Assembly: GCA_043809745.1 (NCBI GenBank)
Contig: JBDROU010000079.1
Coordinates: 1,163-65,162, forward strand
Direction of reading: 5' to 3'
DNA: 64,000 nucleotides
Source of the DNA: a bacterium
GTDB taxonomy: Bacteria; Elusimicrobiota; JBDRMW01; JBDROU01
The notes under the pieces are model-generated. The model made no database searches. It was not told where the DNA came from and was given only the letters and a program-made list of their open reading frames with translations. A program made the translations under genes and the position numbers. The stretch's first letter is position 1, and each line of letters opens with the position of its first letter. This document shows positions 50,944 to 57,495 of this stretch, in pieces.

Positions 50944-51888
50944 CTATTTTTTACGGAAGAAATTTGAGTTTTTTATGATTAAAACGTTTGATTCCGCTAA
51001 TATTTTGAATTGTTCAAGAAAATGACCAAAAGCCTCGTTGTTGAATAAAGATATTACAATCAATTCTAAAGATGAGTTGGTTTTCCGCATGAAATAATCG
51101 AATATCTGCTGAAACATGGTCTTTGCGAGAGCATCGTAAGGAAACTTTCCAGTTGCGACACCTAAAGCAGGAATAGCAATAGTTTTTATGCTTTTTTCTT
51201 CCGCAATCTTAAGTATATTGGTTAATGATTGTTGTACATATGCTTTTGTTGTTTTCTTTTGTATTTCTCTATCTGGGAGCATAATGGCGGCATGCAGTAT
51301 GTAATTAAAAGGCAAATAACCGGCTTTTGTAGCTACAACGTCACAGATGTTTATCTCTGATCCGGTTTGTCTTGCTTCCTTTCTTATTGAATCTCCGCCT
51401 TTTACCCTTATAATTGACGCAAGGCCCTGTTCCATCCACAGATCAGTTGTGTCCGGGCTTACTATTGCTTCAACAGGGAGGCTTATTAAGTCCCCTTGCA
51501 GTATTTGAATTGAAGTGCGGTCCAGTGTAACTGTACAAAAAGAGTCTTCCAAAATGTCAGATAGGTTCGTGTCATTTCTTATGTTAACGCTATTTGACAG
51601 GAATTCGTCGTCAAAGGTTGAAACCTGCTTTAATTCTCCCCCGGTATTCTTGAGCGAGTTTCCCAGGTCAGTGATTATGGATTCGAGAAGGTCTTTTTCT
51701 TCAACTGTCAAATCTTTACTCATCTTCTCATTAACCATTTTTAGTATTTCCAGCGGAAGCACTTTGGTATTTTGATTATTTTTATCCTCTGAGATTTCTT
51801 TTATTTTATCTTTTGCAAGGTCGTAAAGATGAAAAGCAAGATGATTTAAATACGGATTAATTTTCTTATCTTCTGAAGTTTCTGACAT
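50944..51888 (-). CDS. macro-domain (ADP-ribose-binding / Appr-1-p-processing fold) protein with ~130-aa N-terminal helical extension, paralog A
   Basis: QILQGDLISLPVEAIVSPDTTDLWMEQGLASIIR aligns to Af1521-type macro KLAQGDITQYPAKAIVNAANKRLEHGGGVAYAI. ILHAAIMLP to FHTVGP. IKTIAIPALGVATGKFPYDALAKTMFQQIFDYF to ESIAFPAVSAGIYGCDLEKVVETFLEAV. The canonical NAAN and GGG loops are replaced by SPDT and MEQGLAS. Confidence 0.6.
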   Translation of the reverse strand: MSETSEDKKINPYLNHLAFHLYDLAKDKIKEISEDKNNQNTKVLPLEILKMVNEKMSKDLTVEEKDLLESIITDLGNSLKNTGGELKQVSTFDDEFLSNSVNIRNDTNLSDILEDSFCTVTLDRTSIQILQGDLISLPVEAIVSPDTTDLWMEQGLASIIRVKGGDSIRKEARQTGSEINICDVVATKAGYLPFNYILHAAIMLPDREIQKKTTKAYVQQSLTNILKIAEEKSIKTIAIPALGVATGKFPYDALAKTMFQQIFDYFMRKTNSSLELIVISLFNNEAFGHFLEQFKILAESNVLIIKNSNFFRKK

Positions 51889-52018
51889 ATTTATTTTACA
51901 GCTCTTCTCAATATGCTTACATATAAATTATATAAAAGGACAGGCCTTAAGCACAAGGTATTTTCAATTCAACTTAAAAATTAATATTGCTTTTCGCAGA
52001 TGTTTTAGGAGAACTGCT

Positions 52019-52954
52019 CTATATTTGTTTAGGTTGTTTGGAAGATTTCATAGTCAATGTGTTTGCCGCCGCAGCAATTTTGAGCTGTTCAACAAAATAA
52101 ACGTAGGCTTCTTTATTAAACAAAGAAATTATTATTAAATCTATACAGGTGTCAGATTTTTTAAGGAGATAATCAAAAATGCATAGCATCATTGTTTTTG
52201 CGAGTGCATCGTAAGGGAATTTATTAGTTGCTACGCCCAGAGTAGGTATTGCGATAGATTTTATTTGTTTTTCTTCAGAAATCTTGAAAATGTTTGATAA
52301 AGCTGTTTGAATATATTTCCTGTTTGTTTCCTTTTTAGATTCTCTTTCCGGGAACATGATTGCCGCATGAAATATATATTTTTGGGACATCTCCCCAGCA
52401 GTTGAGGAGACAACATCACCTACCCGGATAGAGCCTGCCAGGCGCGCTTCTCTTCTGATAGATTCTCCTCCCTTTAACCTGATTATTGAAGCAAGGCCCT
52501 GCTCCATCCAAAGATCAGTTGTGTCCGGACTTACGATTGCTTCTACAGGAAGATTTGTTATGTCGCCAAGAATTACTTGTACAGAAGTCTTGCCGATATC
52601 TACTGTTGAATAAGCTTCCTCTACAATGCTGGTTATTTTATAAGGTGCGTTTTTTAAGTTTTCAAGTGCTTCAAGTTGAGAGTCTAGAGATGATATGGTT
52701 TCTAATTTATTTTCAGACTTTTTCAGTGAAATATCAAGATCGGAAATAAGTGATATAATAAGCTTTTCTTCATCGTCAGTTAAATTCTCGGCGATCTTCT
52801 TTTTTAGCATTCTTAAAATGTCCAGAGGCAATATTGCGGCTATATCCTGCTTATTATTTGAGAGTGATTTAATTTTTGATTTTGCAAAATTGTACAGCGA
52901 AAATACAAGATTATTCAGGTGAGGATCGATTTTATTTTCTTCTTTTTTTTGCAT
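52019..52954 (-). CDS. macro-domain protein, paralog B (tandem duplicate of 50944-51888)
   Basis: About 55-60% aa identity to paralog A over full length. Identical 24-aa stretch LPVEAIVSPDTTDLWMEQGLASII. Same divergent loops. Confidence 0.6.
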   Translation of the reverse strand: MQKKEENKIDPHLNNLVFSLYNFAKSKIKSLSNNKQDIAAILPLDILRMLKKKIAENLTDDEEKLIISLISDLDISLKKSENKLETISSLDSQLEALENLKNAPYKITSIVEEAYSTVDIGKTSVQVILGDITNLPVEAIVSPDTTDLWMEQGLASIIRLKGGESIRREARLAGSIRVGDVVSSTAGEMSQKYIFHAAIMFPERESKKETNRKYIQTALSNIFKISEEKQIKSIAIPTLGVATNKFPYDALAKTMMLCIFDYLLKKSDTCIDLIIISLFNKEAYVYFVEQLKIAAAANTLTMKSSKQPKQI

Positions 52955-53056: not shown

Positions 53057-53263
53057 TTATAAAATTTCCGGTATTTCCAATCCAATATTAAATACCCGGG
53101 CGGTTATGTTAATAATGATCAATAAAATAGCGATAAGCATTCCGAAGCGGACCGCTAACTTCCAGATCTTTTTGTCTTGTTTAAAATCTTTGTAAGCCAC
53201 TAACGAGTTGTCTAAAACAAGATAGCACAAAAGAAAAATGATTATCCAATAGATAAGTGACAT
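53057..53263 (-). CDS. small membrane protein (68 aa, two predicted TM helices)
   Basis: MSLIYWIIIFLLCYLVL...GMLIAILLIIINITARVF. Strong SD on the coding strand: aaacaAGGAGGTGGAGAatg (rc of 53264-53283). Confidence 0.55.
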   Translation of the reverse strand: MSLIYWIIIFLLCYLVLDNSLVAYKDFKQDKKIWKLAVRFGMLIAILLIIINITARVFNIGLEIPEIL

Positions 53264-53391: not shown

Positions 53392-54165
53392 TTACTGCAA
53401 GCCATTAATGAAATCAGTAAAATATAGAATCTTTTTGATGTCATCAGGATTAAACAGAAATGCTTCCACATCCTTTGTTAAACGCTTAAAATCTAGAGTT
53501 TTGCACTTTAGCAGCATTTTTTTCTTAAGGCTTGCTATATCTTTAACAGAGATTTTTTGCTGTAGATATTTAAAATTTGGCTTTGCTCTGCCGAACAAAA
53601 ATACTGTATCGTAAAAATCCCTGCCCAGACTTCGTTTGCGGTGCAATATCGCGTAAAGTTTTTGTGAGAGCAAAATATCAATTGGCACAAAGCGGATTCT
53701 TAAGAACACATCAAACTTGTTAAGTATAATGAAAGTAGGTTCGTAATTGAAATTTTGTGGTTCGGTGTCAATTTGTATCAGTAATTTTTCTTCCTTATAC
53801 CCGGATAAACCCAAGTCATATAATACTTTGTTTATCTTCAAATAACATCTATAGGCTCCTTTAAAAACATTTTTTATTTCCACTATATATCCTTCCTGTT
53901 CCAACTTTCTCTTTATTAAGTCTGTCATCTGTCCAAATTCAAAGCGGTCTAATCCTAAATTGTCAAAATCAAGATCTTCTGAGAATCTGTTGTGATCATA
54001 TATAATGCGTAGTGCTGTGCCGCCCATAAACGCCAACTTGTGACCAAATTTAGAATCAAATATCACTGACAAAACTTTATATTGCAGATACTCCCGCATT
54101 ATATTTCTTTTGAAAGGTTTTAGATGATCCGGATAAAAAGCTTCTATTTGTTTAAGATCTAGCAT
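53392..54165 (-). CDS. abiEii: AbiEii-family nucleotidyltransferase toxin (type IV toxin-antitoxin / abortive infection)
   Basis: FMGGTALRIIYDHNRFSEDLDFD (GGTAL...R.SEDLDF signature of AbiEii/DUF1814 nucleotidyltransferases). ATG at 54165 preceded by AAGGAAT. The ORF track's longer TTG start at 54189 is less likely. Overlaps the abiEi stop by 14 nt. Confidence 0.75.
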   Translation of the reverse strand: MLDLKQIEAFYPDHLKPFKRNIMREYLQYKVLSVIFDSKFGHKLAFMGGTALRIIYDHNRFSEDLDFDNLGLDRFEFGQMTDLIKRKLEQEGYIVEIKNVFKGAYRCYLKINKVLYDLGLSGYKEEKLLIQIDTEPQNFNYEPTFIILNKFDVFLRIRFVPIDILLSQKLYAILHRKRSLGRDFYDTVFLFGRAKPNFKYLQQKISVKDIASLKKKMLLKCKTLDFKRLTKDVEAFLFNPDDIKKILYFTDFINGLQ

Positions 54166-54775
54166 TTTGGATATATTCCTTAAAAGCAAGGATTCTTCTT
54201 AAAAGTGACTTTTGCCCAATTTTCTCTGCCAAAACATCTAGTTTTTGGAGATTAACCTGTTTTTGGAACTCGTTTGTGTTTATTCTTAGTTTGGAGAAAT
54301 CATATTTGTCTTTTATAGTCGGATTAATATATAAATAATCCAGCACAGCCTTTTCCGGGCAGGCAATTTGGAAGTGTGTGTTATTGCTGCTGATCAAATC
54401 ATAACCAAAAAACATTTCTGACTTTATCATATGATACTTAAAATTAGCAAGAGGCGTCTTAAAAGAGCGTGTTAGCAAAGTGCTCATGGACGTGACCGCA
54501 TAAACGCTTTCCGGTATCAGATTATAGTAAGACAGGGCTGACTGAAGAGAGATATACGACGGTTTGTATATTTTATTAGATATGATAAAAAGACTAAATT
54601 CATCTAATTTTTCATCTGTGAATATATAATAGCCTCTAAGAACTTTTCTTATATATCCTTTATTCTGCCATTCATTAAGTCTGGTTCGATAGAATCCAGG
54701 GTCAATAATACGTATATCTGTCAGCGAGAATACCACAAAATCCTTAAGTGCCCTGTGAAACTCTAAAAAAGTCAT
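54152..54775 (-). CDS. abiEi: AbiEi-family antitoxin / transcriptional regulator
   Basis: MTFLEFHRALKDFVVFSLTDIRIIDPGFYRTRLNEWQNKGYIRKVLRGYYIF and SLQSALSYYNLIPESV match the AbiEi N-terminal wHTH and the conserved S.ALS.HGLIPE region. AGGAAG SD lies 5 nt upstream of ATG 54775, so the 12 upstream codons in the ORF track are unlikely to be translated. Confidence 0.75.
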   Translation of the reverse strand: MTFLEFHRALKDFVVFSLTDIRIIDPGFYRTRLNEWQNKGYIRKVLRGYYIFTDEKLDEFSLFIISNKIYKPSYISLQSALSYYNLIPESVYAVTSMSTLLTRSFKTPLANFKYHMIKSEMFFGYDLISSNNTHFQIACPEKAVLDYLYINPTIKDKYDFSKLRINTNEFQKQVNLQKLDVLAEKIGQKSLLRRILAFKEYIQNARS

Positions 54776-54790
54776 ATTACTTCCTATAAA

Positions 54791-54804
54791 TACTAATATT
54801 AGTA
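54791..54804. promoter_or_regulatory. perfect 14-bp palindrome TACTAATATTAGTA immediately upstream of the abiEi SD: candidate AbiEi autoregulatory operator
   Basis: tactaat|attagta is self-complementary. It is positioned 8-20 nt upstream of the RBS. Confidence 0.45.
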
Positions 54805-54908
54805 CTTTCAAGAAGTATATTATATATAATATGGCTGTTTGTCAAGTGGAAAATGTAAAATTTATTAGCAGTAGAGATATTCTAAAATTAGAGCAAAATT
54901 AGCATATC

Positions 54909-55512: not shown

Positions 55513-57495
55513 TTAATTACTTTGGTTCGGAGAGTTTCTGAAGTAGGCCGGCCACGATGCAACTCCTGCTGATCGGGAAAGCGGTACGGAAATGATTTGA
55601 TCCTGTTCTATTCTGTTTGAACTATCTTTTGGAAGGTGGTTTTCAATCATGTCTGTGAATTGTTTTATTGTGATGAGTTCATTCAGCATAAGATATTTTC
55701 TCGAAGCTTCGATCCCTGGTTTGACAAGATTGTAAACCTGATTACTCTTTATAACAGAAATCCCCCAATATGCTGATACTTCTTCCCAGTAGCCCGGATT
55801 AAATATTTGAGGCAATTTTTCTCTATCAACGCCGTATTCAAGCATATACATGATTTGAAATCTCACCACATCTATAGCTTCAGCCGGTTTCTGTGCGGTA
55901 TGCATCATGGATTCAATAAGATAGGCTAGTCTTTCACGCTTGACATTTCTGTGCTGGGATAATTCTCTTAATGCCTGCTTGAGTCCCGGCTGTGCTAATT
56001 CAAACACCTCATCATGTCTTGTTATAGGAAATCCATGCTTTTTGCATGCCTGTTCCCAATATGATGGGGTGCCGATTCGCCCCTTTGATCCCGCTTGCCT
56101 GATATATGTACACTCTTCACGAATAACTTGAAAAGGATCTTTGCGGAAAGTATTCTTTTTTATATTTGGTTTATACTTGAAACCTTGCGGATACGGCGGC
56201 CTTTTGAGCAGCAGTTCGCCGGCTTCTTTCTTAAACGCTTGTTCTATAAGACCAAGCTGAACATTAATATCCTGTGATTCTCCTAAAATATTCAGAATTG
56301 TGTCTGCAACTTTCCTGTAAAGCGTGTCTCTTTGGAAAGTGTATGCTATGTCTCTCAAATTTTCAATAACAATTTCTGGGAACAGTGATATCAAAATCGT
56401 TGCAAGATTGGCAATAAGTTCGTTCTTAAAAGGGTTACTTACAAAGCCTGCTTCATGGTTCAACGTATGCTGGAGTTCATGCAGGGCTACTTCAAACCTG
56501 AATATAATCATGAGCTGCTCTCTGGCCTTAGCTTTTTCCTTTTGCGGTATGTGCGAAAAATGTTTATCCAGAAACACTTCTGCCATATTTTCAATTTTGC
56601 TTTTTATAATAACAGAACGTCCCATTGCTGTAAAACCTTCAAAATCAGGTTCTGTTGTGTTGTCTAAGCGCTCTGCTACAAGTACATTTCTTGTAACGCC
56701 GCTTTTAAGCTGCAGAGCGACTGTATCAATGATGCTATATGCTCTGTACAAAACACCCATTTTTACATCAATAGTCGCGCGCACAATAAAACCATGGTTT
56801 AGTATGAACTCATTGAATGCCCTGCAATTTTGTTCATATTCAATTAGAATATCAGCAATCTGAGCTGAACCGGTTTTTGCTCTCTCCATAAGACGCCTCA
56901 TCATGTGTTCATCTGCGCTGAATACGCTTATGAGTGCATTTCTTAAAGTATTTTTTTCCTTGATTTTCAGTTTGTATTCAATAGAAACTTTTTTTAGATA
57001 ACCAAGCATTTTAGCGCGCAATTCATTATGAAATTTGTGAGGATATTTGTTTGAATATTCGGCTAATGCATAAAGAATTTTGCTCAAAGCCAGCTGTGTC
57101 TTTTTCTGTTCAGGAGTAATACTTGAGAGTACTGCCGTATAAGCAAGATCCGGAAGCACATGCATTAAAGCAATCGCTTTGGTCAAAACAGCCGTGAATT
57201 CTTTTCTTGTTAACATAAGCTGCGGATGATTCTTTTTTTGATTATTTGCCGGCGGCGGTTTATAATTGAACAGATTACGAAATAAATCAAATAATTCTTG
57301 CCTTGAAACAACTTTTTGGCCGGTCTTTGTGACCGTCTGCGTATCCTGCTGTTGCTCGGCAGGTGATATTGGTACCAACGGCTGGTTTATAATTTCGGTT
57401 GTTCCCAAAGGAGCAATCTGCTTATAAGCATGGAGTTCATTTTGAATGAAGAATATGAGCAATATGATTAGAGAGATTATTTTTTTTAGAAACAT
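55513..57495 (-). CDS. secreted hypothetical protein with HExxH zinc-metallopeptidase-like motif
   Basis: N-terminal signal peptide MFLKKIISLIILLIFFIQNELHA. FEVALHELQHTLNHEAG (HELQH) at nt ~56470-56484. No other recognisable family features. Confidence 0.5.
   Translation of the reverse strand: MFLKKIISLIILLIFFIQNELHAYKQIAPLGTTEIINQPLVPISPAEQQQDTQTVTKTGQKVVSRQELFDLFRNLFNYKPPPANNQKKNHPQLMLTRKEFTAVLTKAIALMHVLPDLAYTAVLSSITPEQKKTQLALSKILYALAEYSNKYPHKFHNELRAKMLGYLKKVSIEYKLKIKEKNTLRNALISVFSADEHMMRRLMERAKTGSAQIADILIEYEQNCRAFNEFILNHGFIVRATIDVKMGVLYRAYSIIDTVALQLKSGVTRNVLVAERLDNTTEPDFEGFTAMGRSVIIKSKIENMAEVFLDKHFSHIPQKEKAKAREQLMIIFRFEVALHELQHTLNHEAGFVSNPFKNELIANLATILISLFPEIVIENLRDIAYTFQRDTLYRKVADTILNILGESQDINVQLGLIEQAFKKEAGELLLKRPPYPQGFKYKPNIKKNTFRKDPFQVIREECTYIRQAGSKGRIGTPSYWEQACKKHGFPITRHDEVFELAQPGLKQALRELSQHRNVKRERLAYLIESMMHTAQKPAEAIDVVRFQIMYMLEYGVDREKLPQIFNPGYWEEVSAYWGISVIKSNQVYNLVKPGIEASRKYLMLNELITIKQFTDMIENHLPKDSSNRIEQDQIISVPLSRSAGVASWPAYFRNSPNQSN

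Follow-up and report, generated by a model that had tools for sequence, protein, structure and literature searches.

A tandem pair of DUF1844-like macro-domain proteins with a predicted rebuilt ligand pocket in an Elusimicrobiota bacterium

The DNA analysed here, referred to as the window, is a stretch of 64,000 nucleotides (nt) of contig JBDROU010000079.1 (assembly GCA_043809745.1, positions 1,163 to 65,162 of the forward strand) from a bacterium of the Elusimicrobiota, and coordinates count from its first nucleotide unless another locus is named. Its subject of interest is a pair of adjacent genes on the minus strand, A and B, whose products combine a small N-terminal helical domain with a C-terminal macro domain. 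Gene A (50944..51888 (-), 314 amino acids (aa)) encodes a protein identical to MFH1283493.1 and matching P0001 exactly, and the product of its paralogue gene B (52019..52954 (-), 311 aa) is identical to MFH1283494.1; both are annotated as "macro domain-containing protein" at NCBI. According to the list of open reading frames (ORFs) both genes are intact, with 130 nt between them. The proteins are 53% identical over 304 residues, which is less than the 55-60% given in a first-pass annotation of the window made from the sequence alone, and the genes share 63% of their nucleotides. Over the whole pair the proportion of non-synonymous differences (pN) is 0.28 versus 0.71 for synonymous differences (pS). 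Thus, both copies are under purifying selection and both are maintained. A promoter and terminator scan around the pair gave the same counts as in shuffled sequence, and a search for a repeat or a common upstream region flanking the two genes found none.

The C-terminal parts of both proteins have the three-layer alpha/beta/alpha macro fold and are paralogous. In gene A the macro domain spans residues 117-307 (50968..51540 (-)) and in gene B, where it is delimited by the Pfam match and the alignment to A, residues 115-304 (52043..52612 (-)). The Pfam Macro profile (PF01661, cut-off 22 bits) matches A with 55.3 bits (E 7.5e-15) and B with 52.8 bits (E 4.8e-14, over residues 146-255). The structure of A was predicted with AlphaFold (AF2) from an alignment of 32 sequences, because an alignment of four sequences gave a predicted local distance difference test score (pLDDT) of only 59.5. 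The model from the larger alignment has an overall pLDDT of 84.8, and values in its macro part are mostly above 90. Foldseek against the PDB places it close to macroH2A1.1 (template modelling score (TM) 0.82-0.86, root-mean-square deviation (rmsd) 2.3-2.4, E ~1e-14), the Oceanobacillus iheyensis MacroD (OiMacroD; TM 0.87-0.89), and PARP14 macro1 and TTHA0132 (TM 0.86-0.90). Phmmer against the PDB yields E-values of 1e-17 to 1e-14 and a ranking that agrees with Foldseek, with macroH2A among the best sequence matches (E 7e-16). The macro fold that the first-pass annotation had read into both ORFs is therefore borne out by profile as well as by structure. Matches of the full-length model to SPX-macroH2A crystallisation chimeras (rmsd 15-20) were rejected as an artefact of the "helical domain plus macro" layout.

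The N-terminal domain consists of three helices and comprises residues 1-84 in gene A (51637..51888 (-)) and residues 1-82 in gene B (52709..52954 (-)). In the AF2 model of A the helices extend over residues 12-34, 44-55, and 62-81 with pLDDT values of 81-91, and are followed by a disordered linker (residues 85-108). An N-terminal helical domain, as described before, is thus present, but instead of about 130 residues it comprises only about 80, to which a linker of about 35 residues is added. Several comparisons point to DUF1844 (PF08899). The Pfam profile matches the N-terminus of A with an E-value of 2.4e-3 and the isolated domain of B, the best in the family, with 26.3 bits (E 8.4e-6; cut-off 27), and sub-threshold matches were obtained for five family members. 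The domain of B also matches a stand-alone DUF1844 protein encoded at a related locus (L001) by BLASTP (E 1e-5) and a small custom DUF1844 hidden Markov model (E 3.1e-6). An hhalign comparison of six family N-domains with this bona fide DUF1844 (L001 1831-2112, Pfam E 1.7e-22) gave a probability of 80% and an E-value of 1.4e-5 over 70 columns. Like DUF1844 the domain has the pattern F/LxNLVxSL ... ILxMLxxKxxxNLTxxEExL and the length of three helices, and in relatives the fused gene is placed as the stand-alone DUF1844 gene is, directly downstream of gltX. It differs in being fused to a macro domain, an architecture found in three sequence clusters only, and in scoring under the Pfam threshold. 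From these profile matches the N-terminal domain is best described as a divergent DUF1844, or DUF1844-like. We know of no function for DUF1844 itself, and the PDB holds no structure of it. In Deinococcus DUF1844 has been linked to D-Tyr-tRNA deacylase (PMC9425974). At further loci (L020-L026; gene 6001-6321 in L020) the stand-alone DUF1844 gene is part of a conserved serA-DUF1844-ispE-prs-rplY(L25)-pth cluster, a clue to what this orphan family may do.

The combination of both domains, in the following called the long form, is rare. A word-indexed search of 5.8 billion proteins returned four members only, and an exhaustive profile search of 1.84 billion representatives, which collected 6,800 macro proteins, added just two more clusters of the long form, P0005 with 296 aa and P0017 with 359 aa; among these representatives the long form amounts to three clusters at 50% identity. 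It was not found in 185,579 species genomes, in which the clade with the SP-type loop is represented only by the P0040 lineage. Plasmids, phages, and IMG/VR viral contigs yielded no close relatives but just generic macro matches of at most 30% identity. Besides the long form this clade contains stand-alone macro proteins of about 180 residues with the motif [S/N/T/A]-P-x-x-[T/K]-x-L-x-M-x-x-G (P0029, P0036, P0038, P0040, P0056, and P0062). Of the canonical proteins recovered by the profile search, those nearest to the long-form family carry NAAN..LWMGxGVAGAI and differ from it mainly at the substituted positions. In addition, a metagenome scan revealed stand-alone macro proteins of high-GC organisms (L005-L016, e.g. 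L009 2725-3261) in which ..[AT]P[SA][GS]TELWMDHG.. takes the place of NAAN..MGxG. These are 69% identical to the canonical NAAN protein P0113, and the NAAN box has therefore been lost recurrently in this branch of the superfamily. To judge by eye from ORF starts, succinate-dehydrogenase and transporter genes seem to lie next to them.

A neighbour-joining (NJ) tree of the macro domains joins A and B as sisters (86% bootstrap) and makes P0003 and P0004 their sister group (90%), within a clade that has 100% support and stands apart from the short partners. P0003 carries the accession MFH1282432.1, which is close to those of A and B, and probably represents another, third copy in their metagenome-assembled genome (MAG). 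By the tree, the window pair is a lineage-specific tandem duplication. Diverged macro domains side by side are also known from PARP9, PARP14, and PARP15, and such multi-macro proteins dominate the profile search. However, those arrays are parts of a single eukaryotic polypeptide that also has a PARP catalytic domain, whereas A and B are separate bacterial genes with no ADP-ribosyltransferase in sight.

The register of the ligand pocket was derived from phmmer alignments to TTHA0132, which is ungapped, and to 1SPV, and from a family alignment to which Escherichia coli YmdB had been added, and all of these are consistent. The D35 numbering of the YmdB sequence fits that in the literature (PMC5413906). 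A pairwise BLASTP of gene A against this sequence produced no alignment. According to the register, D133 of A corresponds to the adenine-binding Asp and is kept. Both Asn of the NAAN box have given way to other residues, S144 and T147, with T147 at the position of the catalytic Asn (YmdB N25, OiMacroD N30, human MacroD2 (hMacroD2) N92), and gene B likewise has a Thr there in the alignment. E153 and Q154, the latter corresponding to OiMacroD G37, replace the first two glycines of the GGG loop, while the third, G155, is kept and is invariant in 32 of 32 aligned sequences. With L156 between G155 and A157 the loop reads E153-Q154-G155-L156-A157 and not GG[V/L/I](D). A157 is found where MacroD enzymes have an Asp (YmdB D35, OiMacroD D40), and this position is also Ala in Af1521 and TTHA0132. 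The exchanges of NAAN for SPDT and of the Gly-rich loop for MEQG had already been recognised in the first-pass annotation, and the phmmer and family alignments agree with it. It had not included loop 2 (P240-F249, PALGVATGKF, 51142..51171 (-)), in which A245-T246-G247-K248 replaces G[V/I/A][Y/F]G, the motif contacting the diphosphate and the distal ribose (PMC7050489). In canonical enzymes the 2''-OH is shielded by the Asn, both the carbonyl and the catalytic water are held in place by glycines of the loop, and the bend of the distal ribose is due to the G[A,V][F,Y] patch (PMC7050489, PMC5413906). Thus, according to the alignments, the adenosine side and the general architecture of the pocket are conserved whereas the whole distal-ribose and catalytic side is rebuilt. 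Within the long-form clade the replaced residues are strictly conserved.

Eleven relative loci were recovered, and they fall into five kinds of context. In all eleven the immediate neighbours of the macro gene are housekeeping genes, namely gltX, which encodes glutamyl-tRNA synthetase, hisG, DUF1844, or rplU-rpmA-obg. In L001 the order is gltX, long form, DUF1844, and a short macro gene (VISPDTTDFWMRQG), and in L003 with L002 it is gltX, long, and short, with 0 nt between the long and the short gene. Four loci (L027, L028, L029, and L032) have the order macro, hisG, gltX, DUF1844, one (L034) has macro, macro, hisG, gltX, and in L030 and L033 the macro gene adjoins rplU-rpmA(-obg). Tandem macro pairs are present in four contexts: the window, L001, L002/L003, and L034. 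The ancestral arrangement, found in other uncultivated bacteria, is an SP-type macro gene beside gltX, hisG, and a gene for stand-alone DUF1844, and this macro gene is often paired with a second one. In L027, L028, and L032 the stand-alone DUF1844 gene overlaps the gltX stop codon by 4 nt. The long gene of L003 overlaps it likewise, and that of L001 starts directly after gltX. The long gene thus begins where the stand-alone DUF1844 gene does, no more than 4 nt away from the gltX stop codon, and the long form is therefore a fusion of this gltX-linked DUF1844 gene with a macro gene nearby. That it occupies the place of the stand-alone gene also supports the assignment of its N-terminal domain to DUF1844.

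The most probable reading, to which we assign a probability of about 0.55, is that the pair represents lineage-specific duplicates of a rare DUF1844-macro fusion, that it binds a ligand through the adenosine side of its pocket, and that the AbiE toxin-antitoxin module next to it is independent. In this fusion a three-helix domain of the DUF1844 type is connected through a disordered linker with a macro domain that belongs structurally to the MacroD/macroH2A type, and the fused gene was duplicated in tandem. By their pocket residues A and B are expected to bind an adenine-nucleotide or ADP-ribose-like moiety, and they could be mere readers of this ligand, like macroH2A, or could process a distal group of an atypical kind. 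Through the DUF1844 domain they may dock to a partner in the sphere of translation or aminoacyl-tRNA, and the two paralogues might act side by side or as a heteromer; the tandem pairs in the relatives suggest such cooperation. A close known parallel is provided by the ADP-ribose readers macroH2A1.1, PARP14 macro 2/3, and PARP9 macro 2. They share a Pro as second residue of the "NAAN" box (macroH2A has HPTN, the window proteins SPDT), a loop 1 that is not Gly-rich, and the retained adenine-binding Asp, and macroH2A-like domains are the best structural matches. However, the fourth residue of the box is still an Asn in macroH2A but a Thr in the window proteins, and macroH2A is a module of eukaryotic histones and PARPs, whereas the window family is bacterial, fused to DUF1844, and linked to gltX/hisG, and its ligand binding is only predicted.

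Several observations weigh against this reading. The linkage to gltX, hisG, and DUF1844 was seen in about five uncultivated lineages that may not be phylogenetically independent, and the window pair itself adjoins AbiE on the same strand and not gltX; neither gltX nor a stand-alone DUF1844 gene is present in the 64 kb. The assignment to DUF1844 scores under the Pfam gathering threshold, and the gaps of 100-130 nt between the genes do not define transcription units. A literature link between macrodomains and glutamyl-tRNA synthetase was searched for and not found. ADP-ribose might even be prevented from binding by the Gln that takes the place of macroH2A1.1 G224, as the exchange G224E presumably abolishes binding. 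Finally, the loss of canonical residues is no proof of inactivity since single mutants of OiMacroD (N30A, G37V, and D40A) are still partly active, their catalytic efficiency being reduced by 72-86% to a remaining 14-28% (PMC5413906).

What is new here is a clade and an architecture within the known macro superfamily. To our knowledge, the physiology of bacterial macro domains is poorly understood beyond DarG, YmdB, and the SirTM-linked enzymes. A macro clade that is found repeatedly near gltX, hisG, and DUF1844, and is sometimes fused to the latter, offers a first functional handle on the orphan DUF1844, with a hint that nucleotides are sensed or processed in some connection with translation.

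A and B could instead be ordinary hydrolases of the MacroD type, i.e. O-acetyl-ADP-ribose deacetylases or hydrolases of mono-ADP-ribosylated Glu/Asp, that tolerate variation in their loops and were duplicated for dosage. The fold is closest to MacroD, macroH2A, and PARP14 macrodomains, and it is shared with YmdB, OiMacroD, human MacroD1/2, Af1521, and TTHA0132 (TM 0.87-0.90 to OiMacroD and TTHA0132). The best NCBIfam models are "ADP-ribose-binding protein" and "O-acetyl-ADP-ribose deacetylase" (best scores 73.8 and 73.4 bits). The adenine-binding Asp and one Gly of loop 1 are retained, and the residual activity of the OiMacroD mutants shows that single exchanges are not fatal. However, these best scores remain far below the cut-offs of 246-252 bits, and the equivalog models overall reach 47-74 bits against cut-offs of 200-315. 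The window proteins also differ from the MacroD type not at one but at all of these places at once: the catalytic Asn (YmdB N25) is a Thr, the Gly pair (YmdB G31/G32, including OiMacroD G37), and with it two of the three loop glycines, is Glu-Gln, the Asp (D35/D40) is an Ala, and G-V-Y-G of loop 2 is A-T-G-K. Their strict conservation in the long-form clade argues for selection for a different pocket and not for drift. In addition, the non-catalytic macroH2A1.1 belongs to the top neighbours in structure and sequence. Ordinary MacroD activity is therefore an unlikely alternative.

The pair lies beside a complete AbiE module, as the first-pass annotation had pointed out, and in the main rival reading it would be an accessory or antitoxin-like part of this module or of a small defence island, for example by reversing or sensing a nucleotide modification related to AbiEii. 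AbiEi (54152-54811 (-), PADLOC E 3e-60) and AbiEii (53392-54189 (-), PADLOC E 1.9e-94; Pfam AbiEii 2.9e-19) overlap by 38 nt and together (53392..54811 (-)) form a two-gene type IV toxin-antitoxin (TA), or abortive-infection, system upstream of the macro pair. All four genes are on the same strand. Between AbiEii and gene B there is only an ORF of 68 residues (53057..53263 (-)), predicted to be a membrane protein with two transmembrane segments from two hydrophobic helices seen by eye, with a strong AAGGAGG Shine-Dalgarno sequence, for which no family was matched in Pfam, PADLOC, or NCBIfam. A common tRNA theme is conceivable, as nucleotidyltransferases of the AbiEii family (DUF1814) modify tRNA acceptor stems, on which AbiEii/MenT toxins act (PMC7450476, PMC10435456), and the macro/DUF1844 family is linked to aminoacyl-tRNA genes. 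Both window proteins also match DarG weakly, and in L027, the MAG "Clostridia bacterium CSMAG_496", the region immediately downstream of gltX-DUF1844 (12605-16555) encodes RadC as well as HsdM and HsdS of a type I restriction-modification system. The closeness of these defence genes to the housekeeping block may be a coincidence. A PIN gene in L033 is merely nearby.

Against such a role stands that AbiEi and AbiEii are a self-contained system with overlapping genes, that macro proteins are no described component of AbiE, and that none of the relatives adjoins AbiE. Not one of the eleven relative loci has its macro gene within a defence or TA system or operon, so that comparative support is not found, and no close relatives turned up on plasmids, phages, or viral contigs. 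The DarG matches (PADLOC E 1.8e-7; NCBIfam NF048014 22.6 and 24.5 bits versus a cut-off of 250) cover the generic macro core only. No DarT (DUF4433) was matched by PADLOC or Pfam, the neighbours of the pair members being the paralogue, the 68-residue ORF, AbiEii, and a convergent giant ORF. No TIR protein was found by Pfam between 50.9 and 60.4 kb, PADLOC returned no Thoeris match, and neither window protein matches ThsA_Macro (PF20016), which was hit only by P0004 (E 0.023). The AbiE genes have the lowest GC content in the window (0.30-0.34 versus 0.34-0.39 in the macro genes), which fits a separate acquisition, and gaps of 100-130 nt surround the window pair, unlike in the tightly coupled relatives. 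A part in AbiE or in a defence island is therefore improbable; most likely, AbiE is an independent insertion beside the macro pair and the adjacency is coincidental. The defence and TA framing of the first-pass annotation is thus not supported: the neighbourhoods of the eleven relatives are not those of defence systems, although the loop does remain non-canonical on re-alignment. In practice, the locus no longer counts as a candidate for a new system of defence or TA.

Three more specific candidates of this kind were rejected. A DarG-like antitoxin is contradicted by scores of 22-25 bits versus 250 and by the lack of an adjacent DarT. DarG of DarTG resembles A and B in being a macro protein of about 300 residues with a second domain and in the weak profile matches, but it consists of an N-terminal macro domain of the TARG1/ALC1-like type and a C-terminal DarT-binding domain, whereas the window proteins have the reversed order and a MacroD/macroH2A-like macro domain. 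A Thoeris macro sensor lacks both the PF20016 match and a TIR neighbour, and for a split transmembrane-effector/macro sensor including the 68-residue ORF there is no signal generator nearby.

A bolder extension of the preferred reading would make the SP-type macro/DUF1844 module an unrecognised factor of the aminoacylation system. Its target for recognition or cleavage might be an adenosine-ribose ester or an adduct resembling ADP-ribose, at the 3' end of tRNA or on glutamyl-tRNA synthetase, and the window pair would have been recruited beside AbiEii as a repair or sensing accessory. If true, this would explain the conserved linkage with gltX, hisG, pth, dtd, and genes for ribosomal proteins, but we consider it very improbable and offer it as a speculation.

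Loop 1 lies in a tract of 24 codons that is nearly identical between the genes. In gene A this tract (LPVEAIVSPDTTDLWMEQGLASII, 51409..51480 (-)) was located by residue mapping and codon comparison and is invariant in P0003 and P0004, and the codon comparison places the same 24 residues in gene B at 52481..52552 (-). The two tracts are identical at 63 of 72 nt, with nine synonymous and no non-synonymous differences (pS 0.52). The identity of about 90% over 60 nt reported in the first-pass annotation is correct in its extent (54/60), but the partner of 51421-51480 is 52493-52552 and not 52491-52550, which is 2 nt off register and identical at 12 of 60 positions only. Gene conversion or extreme constraint had been proposed as causes. 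For conversion speaks that the identity in the tract exceeds both the 63% across the whole gene and the value expected from independent codon choice (55.2/72, P=0.004), and that pS is somewhat lower than the 0.73 in the remaining macro domain. However, the rest of the gene is weakly above independent codon choice too (63 same codons versus 53 expected, z=1.9), and the use of the same codon at identical residues does not differ between the tract (13/22) and the sequence outside (63/133; Fisher p=0.36). In windows of 24 codons, alignment columns 207-237 even have a higher same-codon rate (85%) than the tract. A synonymous difference is found in nine of the 22 degenerate codons, and the longest exact match is just 17 nt. 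The decisive point is that the peptide EAIVSPDTT(D/E)LWME(Q/R)G(L/V)AS(I/V)IR is retained in orthologues from other organisms, which conversion cannot reach. The core EAIVSPDTT.LWME.G.AS is invariant in P0003 (45% identity) and P0004 (42%), of which the latter comes from a high-GC organism and has only 49-51 of 72 nt in common with the window tracts; for L001 the identity is 49-51 of 72 nt, yet 20 of 24 residues. Conversion between A and B is thus hardly credible as the source of the identity. Of the two proposals it is constraint that stands, and the near-identical loop is well explained by purifying selection on the predicted rebuilt pocket, for which conversion is not needed.

The remaining part of the window is dominated by a single ORF of 16,873 residues (234-50855 (+)), which takes up four fifths of it and whose end is convergent with, and downstream of, the macro pair. 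Pfam searches with its residues 1-5000 and 11874-16873 revealed only a fascin/FRG1-like beta-trefoil at about residues 4454-4577. By eye, the first ~1,400 residues are apparently repeated once, and YD/RHS-like motifs ("YD..GR", "GYN.L.Q") occur throughout the N-terminal third. Near the end of the window, about 9 kb from the AbiE/macro block, tRNA-Ser(TGA) (63294-63383 (-)) and tRNA-His(GTG) (63515-63589 (+)) are encoded; an integrase was not seen. Between the tRNA genes and AbiE an ORF of 660 residues (55513-57495 (-)), with a hydrophobic N-terminus by eye and no Pfam or NCBIfam match, is oriented divergently to one of 886 residues (57722-60382 (+)), which also has a hydrophobic N-terminus by eye and, as its only recognised domain, a C-terminal adenosine deaminase (E 8.7e-12).

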